Of a stretch of 29,089 nucleotides of DNA, positions 1 to 28,283 are shown piece by piece. Both the position numbers and the translations under genes were made by a program. The stretch spans positions 1 through 29,089 of IMG/VR virus record IMGVR_UViG_3300032257_000085; one strand, 5' to 3'. This DNA is from a virus (lineage: Duplodnaviria > Caudoviricetes). The notes below the pieces were generated by a model. The model was not told the origin of the DNA. It saw nothing but the letters and a program-made list of their open reading frames with translations, and ran no database searches. The stretch's first letter is position 1, and every line of letters starts with the position of its first letter.

Positions 1-45
1 TGGTAATTCGCGGCGCGATCTTTTTCTAGCTATAGAGTTTTTTGA
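1..45. other. possible cos-like packaging/terminus site
   Basis: GC-rich dyad TCGCG-G-CGCGA (8-18) in GGTAATTCGCGGCGCGA followed by T-runs, upstream of a gpA-family terminase. The layout is reminiscent of lambda cosN and its flank; not proven. Confidence 0.35.
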
Positions 46-79
46 ACGTGTTAGCACCAGTGATAGGTTTTGCCTATGG

Positions 80-3121: not shown

Positions 3122-3122
3122 T

Positions 3123-3683: not shown

Positions 3684-3684
3684 T

Positions 3685-7000: not shown

Positions 7001-7006
7001 ATAGGG

Positions 7007-7031
7007 TAGGGGGTGGTAACATCCCCTATTT
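7007..7031 (+). terminator. stem-loop after capsid gene (weak intrinsic terminator or stabiliser)
   Basis: TAGGGGGTG-GTAA-CATCCCCTA, a 9-bp stem with a GNRA loop, followed by TTT. Confidence 0.65.
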
Positions 7032-7034
7032 AAA

Positions 7035-7346
7035 ATGATGCCAGAAATCGAAATCGAAATCACAGCAAACACGGTCTGTAACGGCGAAACAGTTTATGTG
7101 GGTGATGAAATCACTACAGATAAACGCCAGGCAGACATACTGATCAAAGCGGATAAAGCAAAAATTGCTGGTGTAACTTTAGCTAAACTTGAAGCGAGAG
7201 CCGAAAGAAAGCTTGAAGAAGCGGCTGCGGCGGAGGAAGAAGTTAAAAAAGCCAAAGCAGCAGAAGCCAAAAAAGCAGCGAAGGCCGATAAAACGGCAAA
7301 AACTGATGCAAAAAAAGCTGAATCTAAAACCGGAAAAGAGGAATAA
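7035..7346 (+). CDS. head-associated small protein with Ala/Lys/Glu-rich C-terminal tail
   Basis: Immediately after the capsid gene; N-terminal ...GETVYVGDEI...A..LI...KA pattern; low-complexity AK-rich tail. Confidence 0.6.
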   Translation: MMPEIEIEITANTVCNGETVYVGDEITTDKRQADILIKADKAKIAGVTLAKLEARAERKLEEAAAAEEEVKKAKAAEAKKAAKADKTAKTDAKKAESKTGKEE

Positions 7347-7348
7347 CC

Positions 7349-7786
7349 ATGTCTATCATTAAAGACTTTTCAAACAGCCTGGATGATAACGCATCACTTG
7401 TAGCACAAGTTGTTACTGCCGATGCCTTAAGTTCAGCGCTTGATTTACAACAATATGCAAATGGGGCTTTCCTGTTTTGTATTGGTGACTCAGGCGATAC
7501 GCTTTCAGGTTCAGTTTATATTGAACTTGAACTTCAAGAATCAGATGATGATTCTACCTATACGGCATGTGCTGATGCTGACGTTAAAAACACAGTGACA
7601 GGTACTAATACTGGTACAGTTGCCGTTATTAACGCACCAACAGAAGATCAACTGACTGTTTGGGGTGAATACACTGGTACTAAGCGTTATATCAAAGCTA
7701 ACGTCAATGTAACTGGCACTCACACCAATGGTACGCCGATTGCTGTTGTAGGCTTCCGTACTAATCCAGGTGAGTTACCTGTTTAA
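7349..7786 (+). CDS. putative capsid decoration/cement protein
   Basis: 145-aa beta-rich protein with LQESDD..TYT and KRYIK motifs, in the post-capsid position. Confidence 0.55.
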   Translation: MSIIKDFSNSLDDNASLVAQVVTADALSSALDLQQYANGAFLFCIGDSGDTLSGSVYIELELQESDDDSTYTACADADVKNTVTGTNTGTVAVINAPTEDQLTVWGEYTGTKRYIKANVNVTGTHTNGTPIAVVGFRTNPGELPV

Positions 7787-8061
7787 TGGCACTGGAATCT
7801 GATGCTGACAGAGTTGGTATGCTGTCTGATTTTGGCGAGAATTATGTAGTCAATAACAAGACATATACCGGCATATTCGACAATGAGTACATTGAAGAAT
7901 TAAATATGTCAGGGTCGGTTCCTATCCTTAATTGCAGGACGAAAGATGTTGCCACAGTAGATCGTGGCGACACTCTTCATGTAAGAGAAGCTAATTACAC
8001 GGTTAAAGAAAAACAACCGGACGAATTAGGTTTAACGATTCTTATATTGCAGAAACAATGA
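7786..8061 (+). CDS. head-tail joining / head closure protein (gpFII-like)
   Basis: 91 aa with GIFDNEY, RGDTL and YTVKEKQPDELGLT motifs; synteny. Confidence 0.75.
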   Translation: MALESDADRVGMLSDFGENYVVNNKTYTGIFDNEYIEELNMSGSVPILNCRTKDVATVDRGDTLHVREANYTVKEKQPDELGLTILILQKQ

Positions 8062-8495
8062 CGCATCGCGCAGAAAACATAATGGATGCTGTCACAACGA
8101 CAGTAACCGGGCTAACAACAACCGGAACAAGGGTTGTAAGAGGCCGTGTTTATTCAGTAGAAACCGCCCCAGCATTAACGGTTGAAATGGGTAGTGATTT
8201 TGTTGATCGTGAAACATCGGACTTTGTTAATGCAAATCGAACTTTAGTTGTAAAAATTACCGCTATAGTCAAAGCCAATTCCGAACCAGATTCACAATTA
8301 AATACTATCCGTGAAGAAGTTTATAATGCGTTATTAGCTGATCGTACATTAGGTGCAACGGCTGGTGTTATTGATGTTTGGCTTGATACAGATGATGAGC
8401 CGGAATTAAGTTCCGAAGCTGATCAAACAATAGGTAAGCAACAAATGAATTATATGGTAAAATACCGACATTCATACACCGATGCAGGCGCATAA
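8058..8495 (+). CDS. tail terminator (gpU-like)
   Basis: 145-aa acidic protein just before the tail tube; MTHRAENIMDAV and ALLADRTLG motifs. Confidence 0.7.
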   Translation: MTHRAENIMDAVTTTVTGLTTTGTRVVRGRVYSVETAPALTVEMGSDFVDRETSDFVNANRTLVVKITAIVKANSEPDSQLNTIREEVYNALLADRTLGATAGVIDVWLDTDDEPELSSEADQTIGKQQMNYMVKYRHSYTDAGA

Positions 8496-8496
8496 A

Positions 8497-8622
8497 ATGG
8501 CTGAGAATAAACGCGAAACTTTAATACCCAGGGGTGAGCGAAAGAAACAAAAAGCCGCCGCCGAAAAATCAAAACCAAAATCGAAACCAGTAGAGGAAAG
8601 AGAAGATGCTGACAAGTCGTGA
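8497..8622 (+). CDS. 41-aa charged hypothetical protein (absent from ORF track)
   Basis: ATG 8497 to TGA 8622, MAENKRETLIPRGERKKQK...; fills the gap between terminator and tube genes. Confidence 0.5.
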   Translation: MAENKRETLIPRGERKKQKAAAEKSKPKSKPVEEREDADKS

Positions 8623-9538
8623 AGTAATCCTTTGCAAAGAGGAATCCACTTATAATACCGATTCAGCACCTACCGCTTCTGCTGACGCTATTTTAATATC
8701 TAATCCATCGTGGGCCAATGAAGGTTTACGAATGAATGAGCGGGATGTTGTTAAAAAGACACTCGGAAAGAAAAAGAGTATTTACGGTGGTTCATTAAAA
8801 ACCGTTACTTTTGATGTTGAAATAAAAGGTTCAGGTACAGCCGGTACAGCACCCGATTTAGGTGTATTACTGGAAATTTGTGGCATGACTGAAACGGTTG
8901 TTGCTTCTACCTCTGTTACTTATGCCCCCGAATCAGACCCAGCATCAATGAAATCAGGTACATTATGGTATTACCAGGACGGTTTAATTCATAAATTAAC
9001 AGGTTGTCGTGGTAATTTCAGTGCAAATCTGGAAACAGGTAATGTTGGTATGTTCTCGTTTACGATTACAGGCCATTCTGTTGCGCCGATTGATGGCGCG
9101 ATTGTGACACCTACTGTTGATGCAACAGACCCAGTTTCTATTAAAGGTACATCATTTACAATTGATTCGTATGCAGCAACTATCAACTCATTAGCGTTTG
9201 ATATGTCAAATACAGTGGCAATGCCGGCTGATATGAATGCTACTGACGGCTATGGTGAAATATTTGTAGCCCAGCGTGATATTAATGGTACTTTTGACCC
9301 TGAAATGGAACTGGTTGCTACCGAAGATTTTGATGGTAATTTCAGATCAGGCGCGGCAATGGCCTTAACTACTGGTGCGATTGGTGCAACGGCTGGAAAC
9401 ATCCTTACAGTGACTATGCCTGCTGTTTCATACCGTGATATTTCCCCAGGTGATCGTGATGGTATCAGAACCTATGAATTGGCTTATGGTGCGGCTGAAT
9501 CATCTGGTGATGACGGCGTGAGTATCGCTTTCACGTAA
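8606..9538 (+). CDS. major tail tube protein (non-contractile tail)
   Basis: 310 aa beginning MLTSREVILCKEESTYNTD; HKLTGCRGNF motif; precedes the chaperone and tape measure; no sheath gene. Confidence 0.85.
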   Translation: MLTSREVILCKEESTYNTDSAPTASADAILISNPSWANEGLRMNERDVVKKTLGKKKSIYGGSLKTVTFDVEIKGSGTAGTAPDLGVLLEICGMTETVVASTSVTYAPESDPASMKSGTLWYYQDGLIHKLTGCRGNFSANLETGNVGMFSFTITGHSVAPIDGAIVTPTVDATDPVSIKGTSFTIDSYAATINSLAFDMSNTVAMPADMNATDGYGEIFVAQRDINGTFDPEMELVATEDFDGNFRSGAAMALTTGAIGATAGNILTVTMPAVSYRDISPGDRDGIRTYELAYGAAESSGDDGVSIAFT

Positions 9539-9585
9539 AAATGGGTGCATAATACCTATCTTTATAATATAAAAATAGGTGATTT

Positions 9586-9921
9586 ATGGTCCAGGCAATA
9601 AATGTTATCAGTGAATTTGATTTTGTTTGTGATGGCGATAAGGACGAGAGCGGTAATTTAAAGTCAGATGCAACAACATGGAAATTACGCGGCTTAAATG
9701 GCATGGAATGGGTGAAATGTGTTGTAACAGGCAGCGTAAACCATGAAATGGTTATTAATTATGGTTTAGTTGGCTGGAATAATTTTCTGGATGAAAAAGG
9801 CAATGAAATGGAATACTGCATTGCTAATATGTCGAGAATACCACCAGACATACTCACTGATATTTTTTTACAGATTAACTCTGCATCAACCATAGGGGAT
9901 GAAGAAAGAAAAAACTCATAA
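9586..9921 (+). CDS. tail assembly chaperone (gpG-like)
   Basis: Between tube and tape measure; LVGWNNF motif; ends at a slippery A-AAA-AAC. Confidence 0.8.
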   Translation: MVQAINVISEFDFVCDGDKDESGNLKSDATTWKLRGLNGMEWVKCVVTGSVNHEMVINYGLVGWNNFLDEKGNEMEYCIANMSRIPPDILTDIFLQINSASTIGDEERKNS

Positions 9922-10211
9922 TCGCAATTGAGGTTTATTCAAATCCAGATAAATTCAATTGCGAGGATTGCGGGCATCATCATTGTGATGCAGAAAAAAA
10001 GGTAAAGGGTTCAAATGGTGCTGCGGGGTATAATCTACATACCATCAACAATAAGTGGCACTTTCAAACATGCCTTTTACCGATGATTACTGATAGCAGT
10101 AATTTTATGTTAAAAATGCACAAGCATTATCAAAATGGTGTTTTGTTGCAATCGGGCGGGTTACTAGACCAGCCGAATTATTATCTTGAGGCTATGGAGA
10201 TTATCGGTTAA
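9909..10211 (+). CDS. -1 frameshift extension of tail chaperone (gpGT-like)
   Basis: Heptamer A AAA AAC at 9909-9915. The -1 frame stays open to TAA 10209-10211 and encodes ...FNCEDCGHHHC...QTCLLP...GGLLDQPNYYLEAMEIIG. Confidence 0.8.
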   Translation, partial: KKLIIAIEVYSNPDKFNCEDCGHHHCDAEKKVKGSNGAAGYNLHTINNKWHFQTCLLPMITDSSNFMLKMHKHYQNGVLLQSGGLLDQPNYYLEAMEIIG

Positions 10212-12223
10212 TGGCTACAACACATAATATCGACATAGAAGCGAAGGATAAAACCAAAGCCGCTACCGCTTCAATCGGTAGAAATCTCGACAAGACAGCA
10301 TCTAAAGCCGATAACCTGGCTGGCCGCTTCCGTAACATGGCAAGAGCCACAGCAGCGGTACGTGGTCCATTAGATGGTGTTGCAGCCAGAATGTCATCAT
10401 TAGGTTCGTTAATCGGTAGTGTGTCCATTGGCTGGGTTGCGATGGGTACAGCTATTGCCGGTGCTTCTGTAGTTCTTAAAAAATCCGTATCTGTTTTCAG
10501 TGACTATGAACAATCAATGATGGGTATTAATGCCCTGATTGAACGCACTGGTGATGCTGCGGGTGTTACAGGCCAGCAAATCTCTGATATGGCAGAAAGG
10601 ATAGGCCGAGATACATTAGCCAGTGCTGGTGAAGTCAGGGATGCTGCGGCTATCATGCTGACGTTTAAATCTGTTACGGGTGATGCGTTTACCCGATCTG
10701 TTGAATTAGCCCAGGATATGGCGGCTGTAATGAAACAGGACTTAAATTCATCTGTTAAGCAGTTGGGTAAGGTGCTTGAGGACCCAATACGCAATTTATC
10801 AGCTTTAAATCGTTCAGGCGTTTCATTTACTGCAACTCAAACCGCCATGATTAAGAAAATGGTTGAAATGGGTGATAAAGCAGGCGCACAAACTAAAATA
10901 ATGGATGTTTTAGCGGGCCAGTTAGGGGGGTATGGTGCAGCGGAAGGCCAGGGCGTGGCTGGTGCTATTGATTTAGTCGGTGAAAATTGGACTTTATTAA
11001 TGCGTAAAATCGGAGAAACGGGTATTGCTAAACAAGCAGCGGCATGGATGAAGCAATTAGCCAGCGGCATGAGGAATGTTGCTGAAAATATCAATCCTAC
11101 TTTACAGGAAGCATACAACCAGAAATTAAGAGAATTGCATCAATTAGAGAAGGAGGGCAGTGAAGCAAGAGGAAGAAGTGCCGAATCTCAAAAAAATCAG
11201 CGGTGGTTAAGAGAGCAACAGATTCATAATGAGTTGGCTTTATTAACAAAGGAATTAAAGGCTGAAAATGAAATAAATGCCGCTTTCCAGGCTGACGCAG
11301 ATATGATGGCTGGAATCAATGCGGCTAATGAGGCTGCGGCGGTTAAATTTCTAAAGTCAGAAGAAGATAAATTAAAAGCCATTAAGCGCAGGCAAAAAGT
11401 TCAGCAAGACGCGGCTGATAAATTCGGTGAAATGGTTAGAAGTGAGGCCGATACAGCAAGACAGGCTAACCTGGATAAATTAGCGGTAGAAGATGAAAAC
11501 TTTGCCGATAAAATGTTCAAGCTTGAAACACTACACGCAGCATCATTGATGAGTGATGAAGAGTTCTTTTTACAATCAGAATTGTTGGAGCAGGCACACC
11601 AGGACAGAGTAACTACTATTACCGAAGAAGCTGCAAAAAAACGAGAGCAAGTTGAAAACAGGGTAAATAACGCGGTGCTATCTTCGCGCGGCACATTTAC
11701 CAATAGCATGTTGTCATTAGGTAATGCGTTAGCTGGTGAAAACGAAAACTTACAAAAAGCAATGTTTATAATCTCCAAAGCGGTTGCAGTTGGTAATATT
11801 CTTATTGATACAGAAAGGGGAGCTATTGCTGCTATGGCTAGTCGGGCAGTATTGGGTCCGGAGGCAGCAATAGCAGCAGCAACTAAAATTAGGGCTTATG
11901 GTTATGCTGCGGCTGCGGCGACAGCAGCTACCGGTATTGTTGAAGCGGGTGCGAGGGTTCATGGTGGCTCAGTCATCGGCAACAGAGCTTATTTAGTGGG
12001 TGAGCGCGGCCCTGAATTGTTCATGCCTGGCAGATCAGGTAGTGTTATTAATAACAATGATATTACTAATAATAGCTCTACATCTCCTGTTATTAATTTA
12101 ACTCAGAGCATTACTTATGACACGCCATCAACATTATCAAGAACTATAAAAGAGGGTTCCCGTACAATCGTGAGTGCTATAATCGATGCGTTTGAAGCGG
12201 AAGGCAAGGGGCTTCCAGTATGA
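10211..12223 (+). CDS. tape measure protein
   Basis: 670-aa Ala-rich helical protein; QLGKVLEDP and C-terminal YLVGERGPELFMP motifs. Confidence 0.93.
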   Translation: MATTHNIDIEAKDKTKAATASIGRNLDKTASKADNLAGRFRNMARATAAVRGPLDGVAARMSSLGSLIGSVSIGWVAMGTAIAGASVVLKKSVSVFSDYEQSMMGINALIERTGDAAGVTGQQISDMAERIGRDTLASAGEVRDAAAIMLTFKSVTGDAFTRSVELAQDMAAVMKQDLNSSVKQLGKVLEDPIRNLSALNRSGVSFTATQTAMIKKMVEMGDKAGAQTKIMDVLAGQLGGYGAAEGQGVAGAIDLVGENWTLLMRKIGETGIAKQAAAWMKQLASGMRNVAENINPTLQEAYNQKLRELHQLEKEGSEARGRSAESQKNQRWLREQQIHNELALLTKELKAENEINAAFQADADMMAGINAANEAAAVKFLKSEEDKLKAIKRRQKVQQDAADKFGEMVRSEADTARQANLDKLAVEDENFADKMFKLETLHAASLMSDEEFFLQSELLEQAHQDRVTTITEEAAKKREQVENRVNNAVLSSRGTFTNSMLSLGNALAGENENLQKAMFIISKAVAVGNILIDTERGAIAAMASRAVLGPEAAIAAATKIRAYGYAAAAATAATGIVEAGARVHGGSVIGNRAYLVGERGPELFMPGRSGSVINNNDITNNSSTSPVINLTQSITYDTPSTLSRTIKEGSRTIVSAIIDAFEAEGKGLPV

Positions 12224-17708: not shown

Positions 17709-17751
17709 TGTCAACAAATAAGTTGACACCATTCAACAAATATTATAATCT
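17709..17751 (+). promoter_or_regulatory. sigma70 promoter with palindromic operator over the -35
   Basis: TGTCAAC-N6-GTTGACA (17709-17728) contains TTGACA at 17723; TATAAT at 17744 or TAATCT at 17746 (17-bp spacing). Confidence 0.75.
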
Positions 17752-17787: not shown

Positions 17788-18018
17788 ATGCCTAATGATT
17801 CAAAAGTGTACGAAGAAACTGTACGCATTATTAAACAGCTCAATCAAAACAATGTGACGATTGCTGATATTGCGGCTGAAAGTGGCATTCCTGATCAATG
17901 GATTAGAAATGTTGTTAATCACGAAACCAACAAAACCTATGTTGATCGATTAGAAGCATTAAATAAGCACGTTAAAAAGCGCCTCAGAAGTGTTATGCGG
18001 GGTAAAAACAATGGCTGA
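17788..18018 (+). CDS. Cro/XRE-like HTH regulator
   Basis: 76 aa; TIADIAAESGIPDQWIRNVV helix-turn-helix; first gene after the promoter. Confidence 0.7.
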   Translation: MPNDSKVYEETVRIIKQLNQNNVTIADIAAESGIPDQWIRNVVNHETNKTYVDRLEALNKHVKKRLRSVMRGKNNG

Positions 18019-18217
18019 TGATGTAGATAAAGCAAATGACCATGCGCTTGAGGACCTTGAAAGGCGTATAGCAGCCGCCAGAACTGTAGTCGATGATACA
18101 GTCATTCATATTACCTGTATTGGCTGCGGCGAAACCATACATCCAGTAAGGCGAAAAATATTACCGGTTGTCAAATTATGTGCTGATTGTCAGTATCATA
18201 AAGAAAATAAACTTTAA
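18011..18217 (+). CDS. TraR/DksA C4-type zinc-finger protein
   Basis: MADDVDKAND acidic N-terminal motif; CIGC...IHPVRR...CADCQ; start ATG 18011. Confidence 0.88.
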   Translation: MADDVDKANDHALEDLERRIAAARTVVDDTVIHITCIGCGETIHPVRRKILPVVKLCADCQYHKENKL

Positions 18218-18238
18218 TAATAAAACGGAGTAGTCGCA

Positions 18239-18856
18239 ATGAGTAAAACACACAGAGTAACACCAGCAAAAGTTAATTCAGATTCACAGGCCGATGAATT
18301 TTTTTCATTAACACCAACACAAGTATCAGCCGGTATTATTAAGGGCCTGCTTTTAAATGTAGGTGCTGACAATAAAAAGACATGGATTTTCAGGGCAAAA
18401 GTAAACAACATTGATTTTAATTCAAAGCTTGGCGATATAAGTGAAATGACGCTGAACGAAGCAGAAATAAAAGCTTTGGATATTCATAACGGCGCTGTCA
18501 CTCCATCAATAAATTCACCATGCACTAATAATCATGTTCAGCAGGTTTTAAATGATGAGTCATTAATACCAGATTCATATTTACAAATGATTGAATGGGG
18601 TAGCGAGAACTCAGGCAAGTTATCACACGCCGCTAAAAATGGTGAAATCAGAAGCATTAAAATATTACACACGGAAGGCCAGCGGCGCGGCAAAACATTT
18701 TTGAACAAAGAAGATGTTAAGGCCTTCTTTGAAGCAGAAAAAAACAACACCCCTAAAAATGAAACGAATGAAATAAACGAAAGCGCACAGCAACAACTGA
18801 ATCGAATTGAGCAAAAATTGGACGCTGTTTTAGATTCATTTGGCATTAAACTATAG
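18239..18856 (+). CDS. integrase arm-type DNA-binding domain plus Xis-like wHTH, no catalytic domain
   Basis: GLLLNV...KKTWIFRAK...KLG...MTLNEAEIKA (Arm-DNA-bind_3/DUF4102 pattern); AAKNGEIRSIKI...GKTFLNKEDVKAFF; no R-H-R-Y residues; only 205 aa. Confidence 0.6.
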   Translation: MSKTHRVTPAKVNSDSQADEFFSLTPTQVSAGIIKGLLLNVGADNKKTWIFRAKVNNIDFNSKLGDISEMTLNEAEIKALDIHNGAVTPSINSPCTNNHVQQVLNDESLIPDSYLQMIEWGSENSGKLSHAAKNGEIRSIKILHTEGQRRGKTFLNKEDVKAFFEAEKNNTPKNETNEINESAQQQLNRIEQKLDAVLDSFGIKL

Positions 18857-18866
18857 GGATATAAAA

Positions 18867-19052
18867 ATGAGTTTAACACTACGACACGATGACAGCTTAA
18901 AAGTTGTATTTGTTGACAATAACGAAACTGGCGCAACTGATGATGTGTATATGTATGCTTTTTTGGACAATATAAATTTATATGAACCTGATTATGTATT
19001 TATCCCAAATCTATACGCGGCTTATCAATATTATTTGAAGATTAAGGAGTAA
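18867..19052 (+). CDS. hypothetical protein
   Basis: ATG 18867 with upstream AGGGA; tight gene packing. Confidence 0.5.
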   Translation: MSLTLRHDDSLKVVFVDNNETGATDDVYMYAFLDNINLYEPDYVFIPNLYAAYQYYLKIKE

Positions 19053-19056
19053 TGAC

Positions 19057-19161
19057 ATGAATAACAAAGACGACCAACTACTACAAGGCGGCTGCATGTT
19101 AGCTATCTTAATTCTGCTTCTGATCATAGTGGCTATTGTTAAAAAGGTTATGGGGTGGTGA
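19057..19161 (+). CDS. 34-aa single-TM membrane peptide (absent from ORF track)
   Basis: AAGGAG SD; MNNKDDQLLQGGCMLAILILLLIIVAIVKKVMGW. Confidence 0.55.
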   Translation: MNNKDDQLLQGGCMLAILILLLIIVAIVKKVMGW

Positions 19162-19162
19162 T

Positions 19163-19360
19163 ATGACTGATTTTCTAACAACAGAACAACAAGAAATGTT
19201 CGATACTGTTAAAGGTTTGAATACGGCTATTTCTGAAATAACACGAAAAATGCCAGAGAGTTCATGCCCAAAACTAAAAAGTGATTTACGAGATATTGCT
19301 GATCTCTCACAAAGTTTGCATATTATTTCAAGAATGCTTAATCATAGTGTTAACAACTAA
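19163..19360 (+). CDS. hypothetical helical protein
   Basis: ATG 19163 after GGTGA SD; tight packing. Confidence 0.55.
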   Translation: MTDFLTTEQQEMFDTVKGLNTAISEITRKMPESSCPKLKSDLRDIADLSQSLHIISRMLNHSVNN

Positions 19361-19371
19361 GGGGTAAGATT

Positions 19372-19647
19372 ATGAGTGATTATTTTGGAGCAGCTACCTT
19401 AGAAGATTGGTTAGCTGAAGAAGTATTTAATATCGACAATCAAGTACCTCCAGAAGTTGTCTCTTTATTTGAGAAGTGGAGAGAAGGAATTGAGGCAGAC
19501 ATCGAGAGCTGGATGGATAGTGATGACGGTGACGGATGCAGATCATGGAGAGGGTGGGGACGTGGATTCAGCTCTATCTCAGAAAAAGATAATAAAGAGT
19601 TTGAACTAGCAGTGATTAGAGGTAAGGATATAATCACACGCAACTAA
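19372..19647 (+). CDS. hypothetical acidic protein
   Basis: Strong SD AAGGGGT; 91 aa. Confidence 0.6.
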   Translation: MSDYFGAATLEDWLAEEVFNIDNQVPPEVVSLFEKWREGIEADIESWMDSDDGDGCRSWRGWGRGFSSISEKDNKEFELAVIRGKDIITRN

Positions 19648-19663
19648 GAGGTGAGTAGATAAC

Positions 19664-19903
19664 ATGAGTGATGACATTAAACCATGCAGAAATGATTACA
19701 GGATAGCTCTGAGTGGCGTTATTAATCATTTAAAGCTAACTGGTATTGCTAACGGGTTTGATAGCTTTGCAGACGCAATGTATAAGCTTGATATGTGGGA
19801 TTTTGTATTTAATCAGGCTGATGTTATGGCCTATAAAGAAGCGAGTATCAGACGGCTTTATAATATTTTGAAGCCAGGAATAAAAAACCCTGAATTGACG
19901 TAA
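19664..19903 (+). CDS. hypothetical protein
   Basis: GAGGTG upstream; 79 aa. Confidence 0.55.
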   Translation: MSDDIKPCRNDYRIALSGVINHLKLTGIANGFDSFADAMYKLDMWDFVFNQADVMAYKEASIRRLYNILKPGIKNPELT

Positions 19904-19923
19904 AGCCAAAACAGGGTTAGTAT
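19895..19923 (+). promoter_or_regulatory. sigma70 promoter
   Basis: TTGACG (19895-19900), 17 bp, TAGTAT (19918-19923). Confidence 0.7.
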
Positions 19924-19929
19924 TACATA

Positions 19930-20292
19930 TCGGCTGCATTTTGAGATGCGGTTGAACAGTAATTAAGTGGGGTTATACGATTCAACTGTGCCAATGGCGC
20001 AATTATACATCACAAGCCCCACTAATCAACTATTCAACCAATGACTTGAATGCTGCTGGTCTCGTATCTGTCAGTAGGGATGATTCACTGTTTCGAGTAA
20101 AAAAAGATCATGCAGGAGGGTTTGGTGGGTACTCTGTATGTTTTAAAGTAAGGGCATTGGAAATGTCGGGAACCCATAACTCGCAAGCGATGAACTGGCT
20201 CCATTAGGCAAATCGTAAAGAGAACAGAGCAGTTACCAGGCTAAATAGCTTTGTAATTGCCATAGGGTTCTCTTTGCTCAAAACTTCACCAT
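19930..20292 (+). ncRNA. candidate large structured non-coding RNA or leader
   Basis: Longest ORF-free gap in the window (~490 bp). Nested helices: 19950-19960/20029-20039, 19966-19974/20015-20023, 19987-20001, 20217-20225/20267-20275, 20229-20236/20253-20260. Several contain G-U pairs. Confidence 0.55.
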
Positions 20293-20394
20293 TTGACATA
20301 TAAAAGAAAAGAGCTAAAAGATTAAAAGATATTAATATAAGGCAGTTTAAAAGTAGTTCTGGTACATGATTAACAGCAAATAAGGGGTAGGATT

Positions 20395-20622
20395 ATGGAT
20401 ATGAATCAGTTTAGAAGAATGAGGGGTATGCCGTTTGTGAAAGTTGGAATGCGTGTTGAATATTTATTAGATGGAAGGCAGGGCAGGGTTTCAGGTGCAA
20501 ATACTAGCGAAAACCTTAATATTACTTTTGACGGAGAAAATTATAGCGTAAATTGTCACCCAAAATGGCAGATGCGATATTTTGATAAAGATGGAAATAT
20601 AATAAAAGAATACACCGATTAA
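20395..20622 (+). CDS. hypothetical SH3/KOW-like small phage protein
   Basis: VKVGMRVE...GRQGRV..AN...NL.ITFDG...NCHP.W pattern; strong SD. Confidence 0.6.
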   Translation: MDMNQFRRMRGMPFVKVGMRVEYLLDGRQGRVSGANTSENLNITFDGENYSVNCHPKWQMRYFDKDGNIIKEYTD

Positions 20623-20650
20623 CCACCCCTAGCCATTAAGAGGAAAGACA

Positions 20651-20842
20651 ATGAATATTTACCATGTAAAAACCGATTGTTGTGGTTATGAGTTAAACCA
20701 TGTTTGTGTAGCTTTAGATGATAGTTTTGTAAAAGCTTATTTTAGGGATGATAATATTGAATCAATAACTAGAATAGGAACAAGAATAGATAACTCAGTC
20801 GATGTTACCATCGTTAAAATAATAGCCAGTGAATCACTATGA
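20651..20842 (+). CDS. hypothetical protein
   Basis: GAGGA SD; 63 aa. Confidence 0.55.
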   Translation: MNIYHVKTDCCGYELNHVCVALDDSFVKAYFRDDNIESITRIGTRIDNSVDVTIVKIIASESL

Positions 20843-21003
20843 CAGAACCATCAAAAAAAGTACAAGATATATGCAACACCTACTATCCATTCGACTGTAA
20901 AAGTTGCCCTATAGTGAATGAATGCTTTGAATCACAATTTAAACGAGATCATATTGAAATTATTAACCAGGCAGCAAAAGACCTAAACAACAAAAAGAAT
21001 TAA
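20839..21003 (+). CDS. 54-aa Cys-rich protein (absent from ORF track)
   Basis: ATGA overlap with the upstream gene; C-x7-C-x2-CP-x4-C. Confidence 0.55.
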   Translation: MTEPSKKVQDICNTYYPFDCKSCPIVNECFESQFKRDHIEIINQAAKDLNNKKN

Positions 21004-21021
21004 CACAAGTGGAGAAGTGAA

Positions 21022-21258
21022 ATGAGTACAGGTTCAGTAAATACAATTGTTGGAAGAATCAAGATAGCACCCGTTAAATCACCAATAGCGGTTTTAATAA
21101 GTGACTCAGGCAGTAAATGGCGGCTTGATGCTGTATTTGCTGATACGGTAAAAACAAAAGAATATATAGAAAGCAATCCTGATTCGGTGGTTGGTGTTTT
21201 CAATAGAACCATGAATCTAACTGATGTTAAAAATACTTTAATGAAGGCCAGCGTATGA
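21022..21258 (+). CDS. hypothetical protein
   Basis: GGAG SD; 78 aa. Confidence 0.55.
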   Translation: MSTGSVNTIVGRIKIAPVKSPIAVLISDSGSKWRLDAVFADTVKTKEYIESNPDSVVGVFNRTMNLTDVKNTLMKASV

Positions 21259-21473
21259 ATATTGAATGCCCTATCTGTAAAAAGCAAATAGCGCGTGATT
21301 ATATGGGTATATCGGCCCATTTAAGACGTAAGGACCACAACTTAACAAAAGCCCAGGTAAAGAAGCACCGTGATCAAATGTTATACATCAAACCCGAAAC
21401 TGGCAGTATGAGCCGCAAGAAAGAAAACAAAGATATTGAAAGCGCATTAACCAAAAGCACCGGAATCAAATAA
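21255..21473 (+). CDS. C2H2-like zinc-finger protein
   Basis: ECPICKK...ISAHLRRKDH; ATGA coupling. Confidence 0.6.
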   Translation: MNIECPICKKQIARDYMGISAHLRRKDHNLTKAQVKKHRDQMLYIKPETGSMSRKKENKDIESALTKSTGIK

Positions 21474-21487
21474 TAATTGGATATATA

Positions 21488-21528
21488 TCAACAAATAAGT
21501 TGACAAGTAAATGGGTGTCGATTAGTAT
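21488..21528 (+). promoter_or_regulatory. second copy of the operator/promoter
   Basis: TCAACAAATAAGTTGACA (21488-21505) identical to 17711-17728; TTGACA, 17 bp, TAGTAT (21523-21528). Confidence 0.8.
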
Positions 21529-21572
21529 TAGAACCGTACATTTAACTTACATAATAAATAGGATGAAATAAA

Positions 21573-21755
21573 ATGAGACTATTACCTACATTAATTATTG
21601 CTGCAATTATATTAACTCCCTGGTTTTGGAATGCTGCAAAGTTTGCGAGTTGTGATTTTGAATCGGATTATAAATGCGAGGCAATTCATGGCATGGGGGT
21701 GGTCATACCGCCAGCAGCATTCATAACCGTTTGGTTTGATGATGACGGTAAATAA
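21573..21755 (+). CDS. small membrane protein
   Basis: TM, then W.WN..KFASCDF...YKCEAIHG.G, then TM. Confidence 0.6.
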   Translation: MRLLPTLIIAAIILTPWFWNAAKFASCDFESDYKCEAIHGMGVVIPPAAFITVWFDDDGK

Positions 21756-21771
21756 CAAACAGGACGAAGTA

Positions 21772-21963
21772 ATGGTAAAGCACATATTAATTTATTTCAT
21801 AATGAATTTAGGTGGTACTTTTAACACTGTTTCCGGAACCGCAGAGTTTGATTCTATTGATTCATGCAAGGCGGCTAGCAACAGAATGACCAACAGAGTT
21901 AAGTTCATGCGCGGAAAATATTTTAAAAAAGATGACGTAAATATTATGTGCATTAAGAAATAA
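21772..21963 (+). CDS. hypothetical protein with Cys pair
   Basis: Hydrophobic N-terminus; EFDSIDSCKAA...MCIKK; likely start ATG 21772. Confidence 0.5.
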   Translation: MVKHILIYFIMNLGGTFNTVSGTAEFDSIDSCKAASNRMTNRVKFMRGKYFKKDDVNIMCIKK

Positions 21964-21974
21964 AGACATAAATT

Positions 21975-22109
21975 ATGCGAACTGCAATTATTTTATTAAT
22001 ATTCATATTTACAATGTGTACACAATTTGCATCATGTGACTATGACTATGAACCAATGAAAGTAATCGATGGTAGTAAGCGACCAGGAAACCCGTTTAAA
22101 ACAAATTAA
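21975..22109 (+). CDS. 44-aa membrane/lipoprotein-like peptide (absent from ORF track)
   Basis: MRTAIILLIFIFTMCTQFASCDYDYEPMK... Confidence 0.45.
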   Translation: MRTAIILLIFIFTMCTQFASCDYDYEPMKVIDGSKRPGNPFKTN

Positions 22110-22118
22110 GGCAATATT

Positions 22119-22550
22119 ATGTCCAGAGGCGTAAACAAAGTAATATTAGTGGGTAACGTAGGTAAGGACCCTGAAACACGTTATACGCCTAGTGGTGTAG
22201 CCGTTACTAATTTTTCACTGGCAACAACTGAAACCTGGAAGGATAAAAATACAGGTGAAAGGCAGGATAGAACCGAATGGCATAACATCGTTATATTCGG
22301 AAATCTGGCAGAAATAGCGGCTGAATATGTTACTAAAGGTAAACAGCTTTACGTCGAAGGCGGTTTAACTACTGAAAAGTGGCAGGACAAAAGCGGCAAT
22401 GATCGTTACACCACAAAAATAAAAGTCATTGAAATGCAGATATTAGGGGGTAAGCCTAATAATCAACAATCAAGCAATCAAAACCAGAATCAACAGCAAC
22501 AGCCAGCTAATAGCGGCTCTGACGTTGGCGATGATGATATACCTTTTTAG
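22119..22550 (+). CDS. ssb: single-stranded DNA-binding protein
   Basis: [26 protein letters not shown], and C-terminal DDDIPF. Confidence 0.98.
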
Positions 22551-22578
22551 CACTAAATTAACTTAACGGAGAAAGAAG

Positions 22579-22740
22579 ATGGAATTAAGCAAAGAGAGCG
22601 AAATCCGGCGAATGCAGGTATGGGTAGAGGCGTGGACAAAAACAGCTCAAAGTAATAGCTGCGTAAAACCAGATACAGCGACACACTATGCAGATGAATG
22701 CCTAAAAGAATTTGATACACGATTTAAAGAAAATGGATAA
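22579..22740 (+). CDS. 53-aa hypothetical protein (absent from ORF track)
   Basis: GGAG SD; MELSKESEIRRMQVWVEAW...ADECLKEFDTRF. Confidence 0.55.
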   Translation: MELSKESEIRRMQVWVEAWTKTAQSNSCVKPDTATHYADECLKEFDTRFKENG

Positions 22741-22753
22741 TATTTTTGATTTA

Positions 22754-22787
22754 TGGCGGGGCGTTTTGTAGTAGGGCGACCCCGCCA
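22754..22787 (+). terminator. GC-rich stem-loop
   Basis: TGGCGGGG-CGTTTT...AGGGCG-A-CCCCGCCA; no clear U-tract on the + strand. Confidence 0.4.
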
Positions 22788-22804
22788 CCTTATTAGGGTG
22801 ATTT

Positions 22805-23278
22805 ATGAACAGAAGAAACTTTATAAAATCAGTAGCTGCATTAATGGCGGGGCCAGTAGTGGCAAAAGCTAATTTATCGGAAGGGAGTCAAAAATTAAGC
22901 TTAGAGCCGGATCCGGTATTTTCTTTTAAAGGAAAAGAAGTCGAGCCTGAAACACGGCTTGAAAGCCATGAAAATATAGGCGGTATTTATAAAGGTAATA
23001 TTCTTGTTGCTGCCTTTAAAGATTGGAGGCTAACACATAGCCATAACGGTAATATCGTTTCATGGGAAATCGATGCCGATTTATATTTAGATTATATGGG
23101 GCTTAATTTATTTCCAAATGAAACATATCAAGTTAGGCTTTTTAATGGTGATATAGAGCGAACAGGAAGCGTTGTTTTATGGCAAGTATTTTATGAAATC
23201 GCGTGTACGGGTCATAAACAGTGTAGTTTAGAATTAAAAGGCATCGACGAATTAATGCAAACAATGAATGAAGGGTAG
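22805..23278 (+). CDS. Tat-signal protein 1; mature part tail-tube-like
   Basis: MNRRNFIK twin-arginine motif, short h-region, VAKA cleavage site. Confidence 0.6.
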   Translation: MNRRNFIKSVAALMAGPVVAKANLSEGSQKLSLEPDPVFSFKGKEVEPETRLESHENIGGIYKGNILVAAFKDWRLTHSHNGNIVSWEIDADLYLDYMGLNLFPNETYQVRLFNGDIERTGSVVLWQVFYEIACTGHKQCSLELKGIDELMQTMNEG

Positions 23279-23564
23279 AACACCAACAACCGTTGAACAA
23301 CGGTTTATGAGCAAGGTTGCTGAATTAGGGTGTATTGTATGCAGGAACAAATATAAGGTATTTAGCCCTGCTGCAATACATCACATTGAAGGCAAGACGA
23401 AGATTGATGCACATTTTATAATATTGCCCCTATGCCCTAAACATCATCAAACCGGGGGGTATGGGATAGCATTACACGCAGGCCGCGCCGAATGGGAAAA
23501 GCGATACGGAACCCAGGCAGAGCTACATTTACAGGTATTAGAGTTAATAGCAAACGGAGAATAA
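23268..23564 (+). CDS. Ref-like (RecA-dependent) HNH nuclease
   Basis: GCIVC...AAIHHIEG...AHF.ILPLCPKHHQ...WEKRYGTQ. Confidence 0.8.
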   Translation: MKGRTPTTVEQRFMSKVAELGCIVCRNKYKVFSPAAIHHIEGKTKIDAHFIILPLCPKHHQTGGYGIALHAGRAEWEKRYGTQAELHLQVLELIANGE

Positions 23565-23565
23565 A

Positions 23566-23757
23566 GTGATTTCAAATATAGAAAGCAAAATAGAAAGCAA
23601 AAAATTTTTACCGTTTTGGTGGATGGCGGCAGTTGAAATTTGTTTGATCATCACTGCTATATGGGCTTTGGCTGAATCAAAATACATTGAGTCAATATTG
23701 ATCGTTATTTTAATTGAGCTAAGAGACATTGTTTGGCAGTTAAGAACAGGAAATTAA
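23566..23757 (+). CDS. small membrane protein
   Basis: GTG start after GGAG; two hydrophobic segments. Confidence 0.5.
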   Translation: MISNIESKIESKKFLPFWWMAAVEICLIITAIWALAESKYIESILIVILIELRDIVWQLRTGN

Positions 23758-23778
23758 TAACAGTAAAAGGTGAATGGT

Positions 23779-23946
23779 ATGGCTAAATATAGTCCAAAAC
23801 AATTAAAAGAAATGGCACTTAAATTAATTGAAGCAAAAGAATCGAATGATTTTCGTTATCTGGAATTTTGTTTATCTGTATCGGTGAAAACAGGAAGCTT
23901 GCCCGAAGAAATCGAGAAAAGGATTTATGAGTATGCTAACAAGTGA
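23779..23946 (+). CDS. 55-aa hypothetical protein (absent from ORF track)
   Basis: ATG 23779 to TGA 23946, MAKYSPKQLKEMALKLIEAK...; stop overlaps the next start. Confidence 0.5.
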   Translation: MAKYSPKQLKEMALKLIEAKESNDFRYLEFCLSVSVKTGSLPEEIEKRIYEYANK

Positions 23947-24128
23947 ACAACAGCTATGAATATTTATTAGATTGCTTTGCCCGGAAAATAATATCAATGC
24001 CAGAGGGTAGAATGCAGTTATTTTTAAAGCGAATGACCAAGCATCACAATGATGAATTTATGGCTAATATGCGTGTTAGAATGGAAAAACAACGGCGATT
24101 AGCAATGCCTAAAAGGAACAGGTTATGA
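23943..24128 (+). CDS. hypothetical basic protein
   Basis: GTGA and ATGA overlaps at both ends. Confidence 0.5.
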   Translation: MNNSYEYLLDCFARKIISMPEGRMQLFLKRMTKHHNDEFMANMRVRMEKQRRLAMPKRNRL

Positions 24129-24367
24129 CACCAGAACAGGAAAAAAGGTTATTAGAGTTTAAGCCGTTTGATGCCTGGAACAATAATTGCTCTTTAACAA
24201 ACGCCGATTTTAAAGAATTATTATTTAAATATATTAAATTTGTTGGTGAAGCTGAGGGTGTTGATTATATTTGTGGTCATATTGACTTACGAGAGCATAC
24301 AGATACAAAATTTACTGATCAGGAATGGGAAGTATTAGTGAAATTATCGAAGAGGGCAAGAAAATGA
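24125..24367 (+). CDS. hypothetical protein
   Basis: 80 aa, translationally coupled on both sides. Confidence 0.55.
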   Translation: MTPEQEKRLLEFKPFDAWNNNCSLTNADFKELLFKYIKFVGEAEGVDYICGHIDLREHTDTKFTDQEWEVLVKLSKRARK

Positions 24368-24654
24368 ACAGAAGATCATTTCTAAAAAGAACATTGGCTG
24401 CGGCGGGTGTTATTGCGATGCCTGGATCGTTAAAGGCAAAGCCTGAAACGGTTTACGAAAAAACAACTGTTGAAAGCAAGTGGAAACGAGAACCAAAATT
24501 GATTTATGAATCTACACCAATATCACCAGACGAATCTAACTTTGGCGCGATATGGGTAGCAGAAAAAGGCGAGACATTTGTCAGAAAAGGTGATAAGTGG
24601 GTATCAACAACATGGCCTGAAATAAATAAAAACATTGTTCCACGTGAAACATAA
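24364..24654 (+). CDS. Tat-signal protein 2
   Basis: ATG 24364 (ATGA overlap); MNRRSFLKRTLAAAGVIAMPGSLKA. Confidence 0.65.
   Translation: MNRRSFLKRTLAAAGVIAMPGSLKAKPETVYEKTTVESKWKREPKLIYESTPISPDESNFGAIWVAEKGETFVRKGDKWVSTTWPEINKNIVPRET
24636..24651. promoter_or_regulatory. parS: chromosomal-type parS centromere site
   Basis: TGTTCCACGTGAAACA, an exact fit to the TGTTNCACGTGAAACA parS consensus. Confidence 0.8.
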
Positions 24655-24987
24655 ATGATAGAAAACAGTTTGATTAAAATAAAGCCGTTATCTGTCAATG
24701 TATGCTGGCAGGGAAAACGATTCAAGACACCTAAATACAAGGCATACGAAAGCCAGGTGTATCTGATGTTACCTAATATCGTAATACCTGATGGCGATTT
24801 AAAATTAAATATGACCATAGGGGTCAGCACAAAAGCGGCTGATTTAGACAATACAGCCAAACCCTTCATTGATATTCTTCAAAAGAAATACGATTTTAAT
24901 GATTCACGTATTTATCAGCTTGTAATGATTAAAGATATTGTTAAGAAAGGTGATGAATACATCGACTTCTACATTGAGCCGTACTAA
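24655..24987 (+). CDS. rusA: RusA-like Holliday junction resolvase
   Basis: PLSVN..W...T..Y..Y and DLDNTAKPFID.L...NDSRI motifs. Confidence 0.85.
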   Translation: MIENSLIKIKPLSVNVCWQGKRFKTPKYKAYESQVYLMLPNIVIPDGDLKLNMTIGVSTKAADLDNTAKPFIDILQKKYDFNDSRIYQLVMIKDIVKKGDEYIDFYIEPY

Positions 24988-25021
24988 GTTATAATCACGC
25001 TATAAACTCAATGGAACCCCA

Positions 25022-25363
25022 ATGAAATTAGGCAAAAAGCAAGAGTTGTTCATGCGTCTATTACCCAGGCTGATTGATAAGGCCCATAGTCTGGGCTTTG
25101 AAATAAGGGGGGGTGATCTATACCGTGACCCGAGTTTACATGGCGAATTTGGTAAAAAGGTTGGTTACGGGTCCAAAAATTCAAATCATAAATTAAAATT
25201 AGCGGTTGACCTCAATCTAATGAAGAATGGCAGGCTTGTTACAAGCACAAAAGGCCACGAAGAATTGGGTGAATGGTGGGAGCAGCAGCATGAATTATGT
25301 CGATGGGGCGGGCGCTTCAAAGACGGTAATCATTACTCTTTAGAGCATTGGGGTACGGCGTGA
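25022..25363 (+). CDS. endolysin, peptidase M15 family (L-Ala-D-Glu peptidase-like)
   Basis: SNHKLKLAVD (SxH...AxD Zn ligands) and WGGRFKDGNHYS. Confidence 0.88.
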   Translation: MKLGKKQELFMRLLPRLIDKAHSLGFEIRGGDLYRDPSLHGEFGKKVGYGSKNSNHKLKLAVDLNLMKNGRLVTSTKGHEELGEWWEQQHELCRWGGRFKDGNHYSLEHWGTA

Positions 25364-25796: not shown

Positions 25797-28283
25797 GTGA
25801 CTGTAGACGTACAAAAATATTCTGATCCTGATGTAGTCGGTGGTAATGCTGACGGGTCGAGCTGGGCTAATGCGTATGGTGGTATCGACGCGGCATTGAC
25901 TGCAGAACACGCTAATGGTCAGGATTACACAAACATTAACGAAGCAACAATATCCAATATTACTGCCTTCACTACTGCAAACCAGACATTAACATTTTCG
26001 CCATCCGGAGCTACAGCCAGATTTATATCTCAAGTAAGTACAACGCTTCAATATGAGGTATTAACTGGTACACCAACAACAGCAGATTCATTGACAGGTG
26101 CTACTGAAGGCAGTGCCGATGTAGATACAATTGATGACACGAGTGGCGGTGCCGTCACGATAAAGTCACGTAATAGTGACACAACGGGCATCTCTCATTC
26201 ATCAACTACCGTCACTGATGCCACTAATAAACTGATTATTGAAGGTGACTTCACAGGCGCTAAGCCTGACAGCACAAAAGCAGAAATCAATGTCGGAAAT
26301 GCCACAGCGGTCACGCTGAATACTGAATATGTACTGTTTAAGAACATACAGATTTTATGGGCACCCACCAGTAACTCAAGAAGAGGTATCACCTGGTCAG
26401 GAACCGGGCTACTGGAAACAGATACAGTAATCTTGAAATGCGCAGCGACTGGCGGCAATTACATTAGGGGTATTGTTCCAAGTGGCAATGTGTACCTGAA
26501 AAATACATTGTTACTAGATATCAAGCGCGGCTCTAATGATTACATCGGTGTTTACCAGGGCGGTGCAAGAACCTTAAGAGTCTATAACTGCGCGCTGGAT
26601 AATTGCTATCGTGGTGTAACTAATGACTCTAGTGTTGATGCTGAAGTCGTTAATACAGCAATGAATTGTAATATTCTAACAGCAGGAACAGGTACAACCA
26701 ATTTAACTAATTGCGCCTCAACAGCAGGAACAGGCACAAACGCGGTTACTATTTCAGATTGGAATGAACCTGATGTATTTGATAATCGTTTCTTAGATGA
26801 TTTTGATTTAGGGTGGAACTCTGTACTATTAAATACAGGCGTTGGAAGCAGTACGGATTCAGATGTTCCGGCAACAGATATTTATGGTAACACCAGAACA
26901 GCGGCAACAACTACTGATATAGGCGTTCATTACGATTCAGCGCAACACCCAACAGCTACCGACCCACGTATAGAATACGCCTTTAATGAAACAAGCGGGC
27001 TAGTTTGTGCTTCTAATTATAATACTAGATTGAATGGGGTGATCGGTGAAGAGATAACGGTAACAGACACCGGAGCTGCGATTACAGAATATCAAGGGTA
27101 TACAACTGATGGCACAAGTCATTATGTTTCACTGGGCAGTGGTGGTGGTACATTAACAAAATATAATTCTGATTATTCAACAGCCACAGCGACAAACACG
27201 GCTGTTTTTGCTGATCTTTCAGGCAGTCCTAATACGCTTGGCGGCATGAGATATTACAACAACTTGATTTATGTCAGCGCAGAGGTTGGTTCGTGTACGT
27301 CTTATCAGCCTGTATCTGTTGCCATTTATAATACATCGCTTGTATTTCAAGATGAGATTGATATGTCAAACGAAGAGTTTGAAATATCATGCTGTACAGT
27401 GAATGAAGATGATGGTTATGTCTATGCTATGGGTTATTGTTTTGGTAACCGAGTGTGGGTTTATGATCTTGCAACACCTTATGCGTTTGTAGGAACCATT
27501 GATCTGGATGCCAGAGTACATGCAAACGGCATATTTTATGACACAACAACGGCAACTATTTATGTGGCATGTAAAAATGATAGTGCTACGGCTGGAGCAG
27601 AAAGAATACTTAATTTTGATTTAAGTGGTAACTTAATTGGTAGTTGGAATGCACCTACAATTGCAGAAATGGAAGATATTGAAATTGCTGGTGGTGATTT
27701 CAGATATAACGATTATCCGACCCCACACATTACGACTGCGACTTACCCAACAGCACCAACGCGAACAGAGGGTAGTATTCATTTAGATAAAACTTATTAC
27801 ATTGATATATTCGATGAAATAAGTGATGAAGCTACTTTTATTATTGGTCTAAAAGCAACAACTTTTTTTGCCGATAATACCTTTTTTGATTCACACATAG
27901 GGGATACTGAATGGTTTGGTAGTATCGATGCAAGCGGCGTATTGAGTTTCGTTATTGATGGCGCAAGCCCTGTCACTCATACATTACCCAGCGCGACAAC
28001 AGAATATAAAATTGCTATTACAATCGGCGGCAGTGGTGCAACTCGAACAGTTAAGCTTTATGTTGATGACACGCTGGAAGATACACAAACTCAGGATTGG
28101 GTAGCACCTCCAGCAGAATGGTATTCATTAGGAGCTGGCAATAGCAATAACACTAAGAGTGATTGTGAGTTATTTTATTTCGCTGCCTTTGATTATGAAC
28201 TGAGCAGCACCGAAGTTTCAGACTACACGCCGCCAGCATACCCAACCAGTGGTATACTACCCTTAATGATGGCTTACACTTAG
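25797..28283 (+). CDS. large Thr-rich virion appendage / receptor-binding-like protein (beta-helix + beta-propeller + LamG-like)
   Basis: DGSSWANAY start motif, beta-helix-like NC/NT repeats, TDIYGNTR...DIG motif, propeller-like blades, C-terminal LYVDD...SLGA...CEL LamG-like motifs. Confidence 0.65.
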   Translation: MTVDVQKYSDPDVVGGNADGSSWANAYGGIDAALTAEHANGQDYTNINEATISNITAFTTANQTLTFSPSGATARFISQVSTTLQYEVLTGTPTTADSLTGATEGSADVDTIDDTSGGAVTIKSRNSDTTGISHSSTTVTDATNKLIIEGDFTGAKPDSTKAEINVGNATAVTLNTEYVLFKNIQILWAPTSNSRRGITWSGTGLLETDTVILKCAATGGNYIRGIVPSGNVYLKNTLLLDIKRGSNDYIGVYQGGARTLRVYNCALDNCYRGVTNDSSVDAEVVNTAMNCNILTAGTGTTNLTNCASTAGTGTNAVTISDWNEPDVFDNRFLDDFDLGWNSVLLNTGVGSSTDSDVPATDIYGNTRTAATTTDIGVHYDSAQHPTATDPRIEYAFNETSGLVCASNYNTRLNGVIGEEITVTDTGAAITEYQGYTTDGTSHYVSLGSGGGTLTKYNSDYSTATATNTAVFADLSGSPNTLGGMRYYNNLIYVSAEVGSCTSYQPVSVAIYNTSLVFQDEIDMSNEEFEISCCTVNEDDGYVYAMGYCFGNRVWVYDLATPYAFVGTIDLDARVHANGIFYDTTTATIYVACKNDSATAGAERILNFDLSGNLIGSWNAPTIAEMEDIEIAGGDFRYNDYPTPHITTATYPTAPTRTEGSIHLDKTYYIDIFDEISDEATFIIGLKATTFFADNTFFDSHIGDTEWFGSIDASGVLSFVIDGASPVTHTLPSATTEYKIAITIGGSGATRTVKLYVDDTLEDTQTQDWVAPPAEWYSLGAGNSNNTKSDCELFYFAAFDYELSSTEVSDYTPPAYPTSGILPLMMAYT

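Follow-up and report, generated by a model that had tools for sequence, protein, structure and literature searches.

The intergenic gap and the phage that carries it

The window, that is the whole stretch of 29,089 bp that was analysed, corresponds to an entire virus record, rated 75% complete, and codes for a lambda-like head/tail module, lysis genes and an early region of small ORFs (47 ORFs scanned), whose products include an HTH protein, a DksA-like protein, an SSB, an HNH nuclease and a RusA-like protein. DNA identical to the window was found in microbial-mat runs, possibly the source of the record, and in a contig of 35,813 bp (L189), and proteins of this phage are on record on contigs of up to 37,285 bp, so that about 8 kb past the right end of the window are unseen. 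The few named relatives of the SSB point weakly to a gammaproteobacterial host. No tRNA or tmRNA genes were detected in the window with ARAGORN, and no repressor, integrase or recombinase operon was found in its visible part.

Several features elsewhere in the genome deserve mention. A 17-nt block with palindromic ends (CAACAAATAAGTTGACA) occurs in identical copies at 17712-17728 and 21489-21505, forming the −35 of two further early promoter-like sites; it is absent from G001, the closest relative found, and is likely the operator of the 76-aa HTH protein encoded at 17788. The 205-aa orphan ORF at 18239-18856 combines an integrase-type arm-DNA-binding domain, an HTH_17-like domain and a coiled tail, with no relatives among 95 candidates and an Atlas score of 0.80, which we take as a lead only. 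The ORFs at 22805-23278 and 24325-24654 start with TAT-like (twin-arginine) signals, below the Pfam cut-off, which are unusual for phage early proteins. Finally, a gap of 289 nt (9922-10210) separates a 111-aa gene from the tape measure gene, and presumably holds a frameshifted tail-chaperone extension, following the lambda G/G-T layout.

The largest gap between the + strand genes of the window spans 491 nt (19904-20394). It contains one 53-codon frame with a TTG start (20046-20207), which has no match in PHROGs or Pfam and is disrupted by a 2-nt insertion in the homologous contig L187 and by a 1-nt deletion in a partial homologue from run X4 (see below). An initial annotation of this DNA had placed here a promoter and a large structured non-coding RNA, and all 19 of its motifs were recovered at the positions it gave. 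The predicted sigma-70 promoter (TTGACG-17-TAGTAT, 19895-19923, + strand), from which transcription would start near 19930, is present as described and has an equivalent in L187 (TTGCAA-17-TATATT, 9/12, with an extended −10, TG), but sites of the 9/12 class occur at chance level (16 found, 22 expected). The same stretch carries an inverted repeat over the sense promoter (19886-19918), which on the − strand forms a hairpin followed by a U run, resembling a terminator (z −7.0). This promoter hairpin is preserved in G001, with 34 of 37 positions identical, and the full element occurs in one copy per genome.

The 5' part of the element is a variable, rod-like hairpin (19929-20060) that folds on both strands (z −5.1 on +, −5.3 on −). 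This 130-nt rod has no sequence counterpart in L187, which has at the same position an unrelated 60-nt hairpin (z −0.6 on +, −5.3 on −). An antisense promoter is predicted at 20002-20029 (TTGATT-16-TATAAT, − strand, 10/12), with a counterpart of only 8/12 in L187 and none found in G001, and an antisense RNA of about 113 nt (19882-19995, − strand, z −4.4), possibly RNA I- or OOP-like, is predicted to end at the terminator-like hairpin. A transcript from the predicted antisense site would exclude part of the rod, and one from the weak site of L187 would share only some 10 nt with the sense RNA. In L187, the − strand of positions 894-1035 folds into three hairpins with a U tail at the end (z −6.25, versus −2.5 on +). 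A crude count of wobbles gave 7 on the + and 10 on the − strand for the 5' regions, versus 8 and 1 for the core (Fisher p 0.04, post hoc), and this bias, together with the strand folds, fits a putative antisense RNA over the promoter and 5' end. The earlier proposal that the G-U pairs favour a + strand RNA holds for the core, but the 5' rod folds at least as well on the − strand. Behind the core follows an A-rich tail (45 of 58 positions A+T), and no + strand terminator was found there in either the window or L187. No RNA runs are listed among the sequencing runs carrying the element, which says nothing on its expression.

Homologues and fold of the core

The structured core (20063-20302, + strand) is conserved in L187, with 155 of 218 positions identical (nhmmer E 2.6e-24). 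This contig came from a metagenome pattern scan that returned nine loci, comprising one identical copy, L187 as the one true homologue and seven chance matches. A second, partial homologue was found in run X4, from a cold seep and a different study, as a 241-nt contig of depth 2 that is 95% identical to 20139-20311, with eight substitutions and one deletion listed, and diverges after 20311. Of the pieces listed from X4 across 20 kb of the window, none is longer or closer than that of the core; this comparison does not rank genes, as the matching runs span only the stretch used to find them. In L187, a contig of 1.5 kb and too short to judge replication-gene content, the unit is preceded by small ORFs of no assigned function and by a terminator-like hairpin. 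It carries a promoter-like site of its own, and 3' of the core no same-strand gene is recognisable.

Other searches were negative. Five DNA patterns run against viral contigs gave 274 loci, none homologous (for two of the patterns full flanks were available for 80 loci), and one pattern run against a genome collection gave 16 loci, again none homologous. The search with model R1 matched none of the 50 related viral records covered, out of 56 and mostly fragments, BLAST of prokaryote genomes gave 0/400 plus 0/3, and the phage, plasmid and E. coli collections yielded short noise only. Protein-led scans from ORF 20395 and from a distal tail gene found no carrier of the element, and the core motifs are absent from six supplementary files of PMC10690425. 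In the collections searched the element family is therefore rare, being represented by two full sequences and one partial one.

Both homologues, the diverged L187 and the partial X4, keep the helices that had been drawn from the window alone. Among the 22 alignable pairs of those helices there are 8 double changes, 3 single changes (to or from G-U) and no broken pair between the window and L187. The helix CATGCAGGAG/CTCTGTATG has three double changes and one single change, the outer four pairs of GGCATT/AATGTC have two double changes (its two inner pairs could not be aligned and were excluded from the count), and AAAGAGAAC/GTTCTCTTT has three double and two single changes. Four of the eight X4 substitutions form two double-sided changes in AAAGAGAAC/GTTCTCTTT, the same as two of those in L187 and so not counted twice, and another turns a T-A pair into T-G. 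A model of 46 pairs on alignment A1 gave 8 double-sided and 5 single changes with no pair broken, while slid controls pair at 36-46%; as this model was partly derived from the alignment, the fair test is that of the 22 alignable pairs drawn from the window alone. All five single changes involve G-U on the + strand.

The resulting fold is enclosed by two proposed helices within 20070-20199 (+ strand), P1 (20070-74/20195-99) and P2 (20085-98/20179-93), whose pairing would rest on near-invariant letters, with 15 of their 17 pairs invariant and two single changes to G-U. Inside lie hairpin P3 (20109-20140, + strand), with a 13-nt loop and three double changes and one single change in nine pairs, and the small hairpin P4 (20153-20167, + strand), with GGA in its loop and two double changes in four pairs. 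The TGGGT of the P3 loop may form a pseudoknot with ACCCA (20126-20176, + strand), in which all five pairs are kept and invariant, and thus offer no covariation. This pairing fits in place of the long-range TGGTGGG/TTCACCA interaction proposed at first, which loses three of its seven pairs in L187. The long hairpin P6 (20215-20277, + strand) has three double and two single changes in 11 pairs (z −6.3), with a variable distal stem (20229-60), and is followed at 20278-20360 (+ strand) by conserved single-stranded motifs with invariant runs (AACTTCACCAT, CATATAA and AAAGATTA) and the A-rich tail, which may together be an unwinding or priming zone. A closing helix TGTCAG/TTGACA, present in the MFE structure of the window, was rejected as three of its six pairs are lost in L187. 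A GNRA reading of GCAA/GTAA at 20183-86 competes with P2. In L187, P4 (L187:1118-1136) has a CAAGGAUG loop, of which the window keeps only GGA; we take this L187 hairpin to resemble the CsrA/RsmA binding consensus. A CsrB-type sponge was rejected by eye, the GGA motifs being few and not conserved.

Taken by itself, folding energy is modest evidence, and it is the covariation that carries the proof. Over 417 nt the fold has a z of −3.7 on the + strand and −2.5 on the − strand, the cores alone reach −2.4 (window) and −0.2 (L187), and the best 150-nt tile of the element ranks 14th of 193 in the window. Coding tiles at 27751-27900 and 7351-8100 fold more strongly (z −6.2, −5.4 and −4.6, 20 shuffles each). 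These unexceptional MFE scores are what could be said for chance folding, an explanation that is largely refuted, and that we consider extremely improbable, given eight double changes and no broken pair in helices drawn before the homologue was known. The same very low probability applies to a decayed protein gene: the mismatches between the core and L187 are spread over codon positions as 24/21/18, with no periodicity, and the indels disrupt the frames, so that the core is not the remnant of such a gene. The covariation and the + strand G-U changes of the core thus bear out the claim of a large structured non-coding element, predicted to act as RNA.

The window gave no Rfam match at E values up to 10, and L187 gave only sub-threshold noise against Rfam 15, outside the core; the unmatched Rfam 15 families include tmRNA, RNase P, SRP, 6S, introns, riboswitches, ROOL, GOLLD, OLE, raiA and HEARO. 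Comparison by eye with known motifs likewise led us to reject group I and II introns, RNase P, tmRNA, T-box, glmS and hammerhead. The element is real, and is uncatalogued, rare, structured and strikingly placed.

The replication slot and known replicons

G001 shares 77% DNA identity with the window over positions 2-11608, and its head and tail proteins are 67-91% identical. The early regions of the two genomes have nothing in common beyond a 60-aa gene and the promoter hairpin of 37 bp, which is the sole early non-coding match between them. Behind this hairpin G001 has a 125-nt leader, a DUF1376/primosomal initiator (O-like), whose gene contains four iteron-like repeats, and a P-like helicase loader, which agrees with the statement of the initial annotation that the element lies where a replication module is expected. 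The RNA element is absent from G001, and the G001 initiator has no match in the window. The small genes upstream and downstream are wholly different in the two phages, so the swap was not a clean one-for-one exchange. The early region of G001 (G001:C1:26414-36685) is inverted relative to the virion genes as compared with that of the window (17788-25363).

Among the 47 ORFs scanned in the window we found no replication gene other than that for SSB, and no initiator, loader, helicase, primase or iteron array is recognisable in the visible 29 kb, with about 8 kb unseen. Repeat families of at least three close copies are absent from the window, DnaA boxes are not above chance, and the GC skew shows no switch, which is uninformative as all genes lie on one strand. 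The replication genes of the lambda-like relatives belong to the early region, a part of the genome that the window shows in full. As a control, 83 of 193 ORFs from five of the six fetched relatives were scanned, with G038 and the virion regions excluded: G003, G005 and G002 have O-like initiators and G046 a polymerase and a primase, so that replication genes are shown in five of six related records, including G001. G037, which is complete, has no replication gene in the 17 of 32 ORFs scanned, and no match to the RNA. It is a phage of 38.7 kb with terminal repeats (L365, L366), and has a 294-aa unknown protein encoded 3' of the integrase.

The likeness to ColE1 RNA II suggested initially survives as a working principle, which is a live hypothesis, but not as homology. 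The element gave no blastn match in plasmids (PLSDB) or E. coli records, and on ColE1 model R1 and nhmmer gave noise only, none of it over the origin. The ColE1 record has G6 runs at 928 and 1175, whereas neither the window core nor L187 has a run of four or more G. ColE1 RNA II is about 555 nt long; the phage element comes to about 400 nt, with a pseudoknot-like core and no paired G-runs. Pairing of the rG stretch with template dC is described as essential for the ColE1 hybrid in PMC4412123. What the phage element would share with RNA II and RNA I (PMC12966454, PMC4412123) is a folded transcript, predicted in the phage, that is led by a promoter and has its control region in a variable 5' part, and in L187 a candidate antisense RNA of three hairpins.

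The element also resembles the MRB (marine RNA-based) origins (pB1067 type) in layout. In PMC3035462 they are given as 488 bp, with an RNA II of at least 465 nt and an RNA I of 68 nt, and this 2010 paper names only two plasmid families with RNA-started, Rep-free replication. By the same account (PMC3035462) the MRB origins and the phage element have in common an ORF-free stretch of about 450-500 bp, no iterons, a 5' inverted repeat or terminator, a predicted short antisense RNA and a likely gammaproteobacterial host; the 491-nt gap, with no iteron array and a hairpin with a U run, has this layout, and its role as an origin is predicted. They differ in that the element lies in a tailed phage and not in a plasmid, and in that the RNA I region is conserved in MRB, with a core of 110 bp (PMC3035462), but variable in the phage element. 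No blastn match was found in PLSDB, nor any match on p23023, a putative MRB plasmid. Membership of the MRB group is unsupported, pB1067 itself having been compared by description only.

With the lambda O/P/ori module and its OOP RNA, as described in PMC3985674, the element shares the slot and an antisense terminator-like hairpin at the upstream edge, as is also seen in the O/P-type G001, where this hairpin could serve an OOP-like RNA (PMC3985674). In contrast to lambda, the visible window has no O-like gene with internal iterons and no P-like or DnaB gene, all of which G001 has in its O- and P-like pair, and carries instead a conserved 240-nt core, predicted to be a sense RNA. Transcript-primed initiation is known in phage from the T4 R-loop origins oriF and oriG, which, according to PMC4412123, likewise consist of a phage promoter followed by an A+T-rich stretch; T4, however, encodes its own replisome and its origin is a promoter plus an unwinding element (PMC4412123), whereas in the window an elaborate conserved fold lies in between and SSB alone is encoded. 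GOLLD, ROOL, OLE and raiA invite comparison as multi-domain non-coding RNAs of mobile elements, from which the present element differs in having no Rfam match and no tRNA genes in the window. It is also smaller than GOLLD, ROOL and OLE.

Replication origin or stand-alone RNA

In lambdoid mosaicism, modules exchanged at a common boundary tend to be equivalent in function, and this favours an initiator-free origin. We therefore propose, tentatively, that the element is an origin activated by its own transcript, working like those of ColE1 and MRB and probably belonging to neither. Host RNA polymerase would transcribe about 400 nt from 19930; the pseudoknotted core would fold co-transcriptionally and, within the A-rich tail, pin the 3' end to the template in an R-loop; and synthesis would be started by host RNase H and Pol I, or by a helicase that is loaded, together with the phage SSB, onto the displaced strand. 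How often the origin fires might be set by a short antisense RNA covering the variable 5' part, in the manner of RNA I of the ColE1 and MRB plasmids. All these steps are inferred. A more specific version, which is possible and rather doubtful, is that the O/P module gave way to a pseudoknotted RNA of a new class, which starts replication without the G-run coupling of ColE1, through an R-loop or host helicase loading. It would then be the third replicon run by RNA, evolved independently of the other two, and the first such case among tailed phages lacking a replisome of their own. In favour of an origin stand the hairpin-bounded slot, in which the element takes the place of the initiator, loader and iterons of G001, and, by analogy, a layout resembling that of RNA-based replicons, with an ORF-free stretch of about 450 bp, a 5' terminator-like repeat, a 5' part that folds on both strands and a sense-only core. 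Against it, the unseen 8 kb could hold a replication gene, and G037, although complete, is also without a recognised one; the two G6 runs of ColE1 have no counterpart and the 3' core is pyrimidine-rich, which leaves the holding of the hybrid unexplained; the antisense promoter is weak in L187; the terminator-like hairpin, being also present in G001, may be an OOP-like leftover; and the comparison draws on two full sequences, one of them on a contig too short for its replication-gene content to be judged.

A close rival, nearly as likely as an origin, is a stand-alone early RNA that acts in trans, for instance in host take-over, as a decoy or against host defence, and was gained behind a strong early promoter, with replication depending on a gene in the unseen 8 kb or on an unrecognised protein. 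Invariant runs of 13 and 18 nt would suit a protein-binding site or catalytic core. The unit of L187 lies among different genes and comes with a terminator and a promoter of its own, phages are known to carry large RNAs such as GOLLD and ROOL, and G037 shows that a replication gene can escape recognition. However, a + strand terminator is missing behind the core in both sequences, the absence of initiator, loader and iterons in exactly this slot is left unexplained and, as a weaker point, of the 120 best among 1641 DUF1376 relatives, none is found on a contig of a length recorded for this phage. The covariation would be the same if the element were a folded single-stranded DNA signal, of the sso or ssi type, priming rolling-circle or displacement synthesis, and its position in the replication slot and the nearby SSB would fit; yet a promoter-like site precedes the element in both sequences, the five single changes all give G-U on one strand, and the 5' part prefers the opposite strand, so we consider this unlikely.

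Somewhat less credit is due to a role in cis, as a leader that controls the five small genes downstream of the element as a riboswitch, through antitermination or at the level of translation. No terminator lies between the element and ORF 20395 in the window, and two TCAC motifs could, judging from the letters, compete for GATGA and so allow a switch. The L187 element, however, has its own upstream terminator and promoter and occurs without those genes, with no recognisable same-strand gene behind it, the core lies 90 nt from the next start codon, and Rfam offers no match, all of which weakens the antitermination or leader role also suggested at the outset. Less probable still is a replication-defective or helper-dependent phage, whose RNA would exploit a G001-like helper or be unrelated cargo. 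A G001-like phage appears at about tenfold contig depth in the same run X1 (window 9100-11140 and 21621-21755), its identity being inferred from one loose end, and the window has three one-mismatch copies of the G001 iteron versus 0.46 expected; these copies lie away from the slot, two in the tail-fibre gene, within the stretch for a repeated peptide, and the third at 24462, and the virion genes are full length.

In the limited literature collection searched, we found no phage with an RNA in place of O/P. Even without a role as an origin, the element would remain a phage RNA that is uncatalogued, supported by covariation and rare. If the origin reading is true, a folded RNA exchangeable with the O/P module would show RNA in the role of a phage initiator, would be one way to explain phage genomes without replication genes, and would provide a compact origin orthogonal to ColE1; the element would then be a further variant of the RNA-run replicons.
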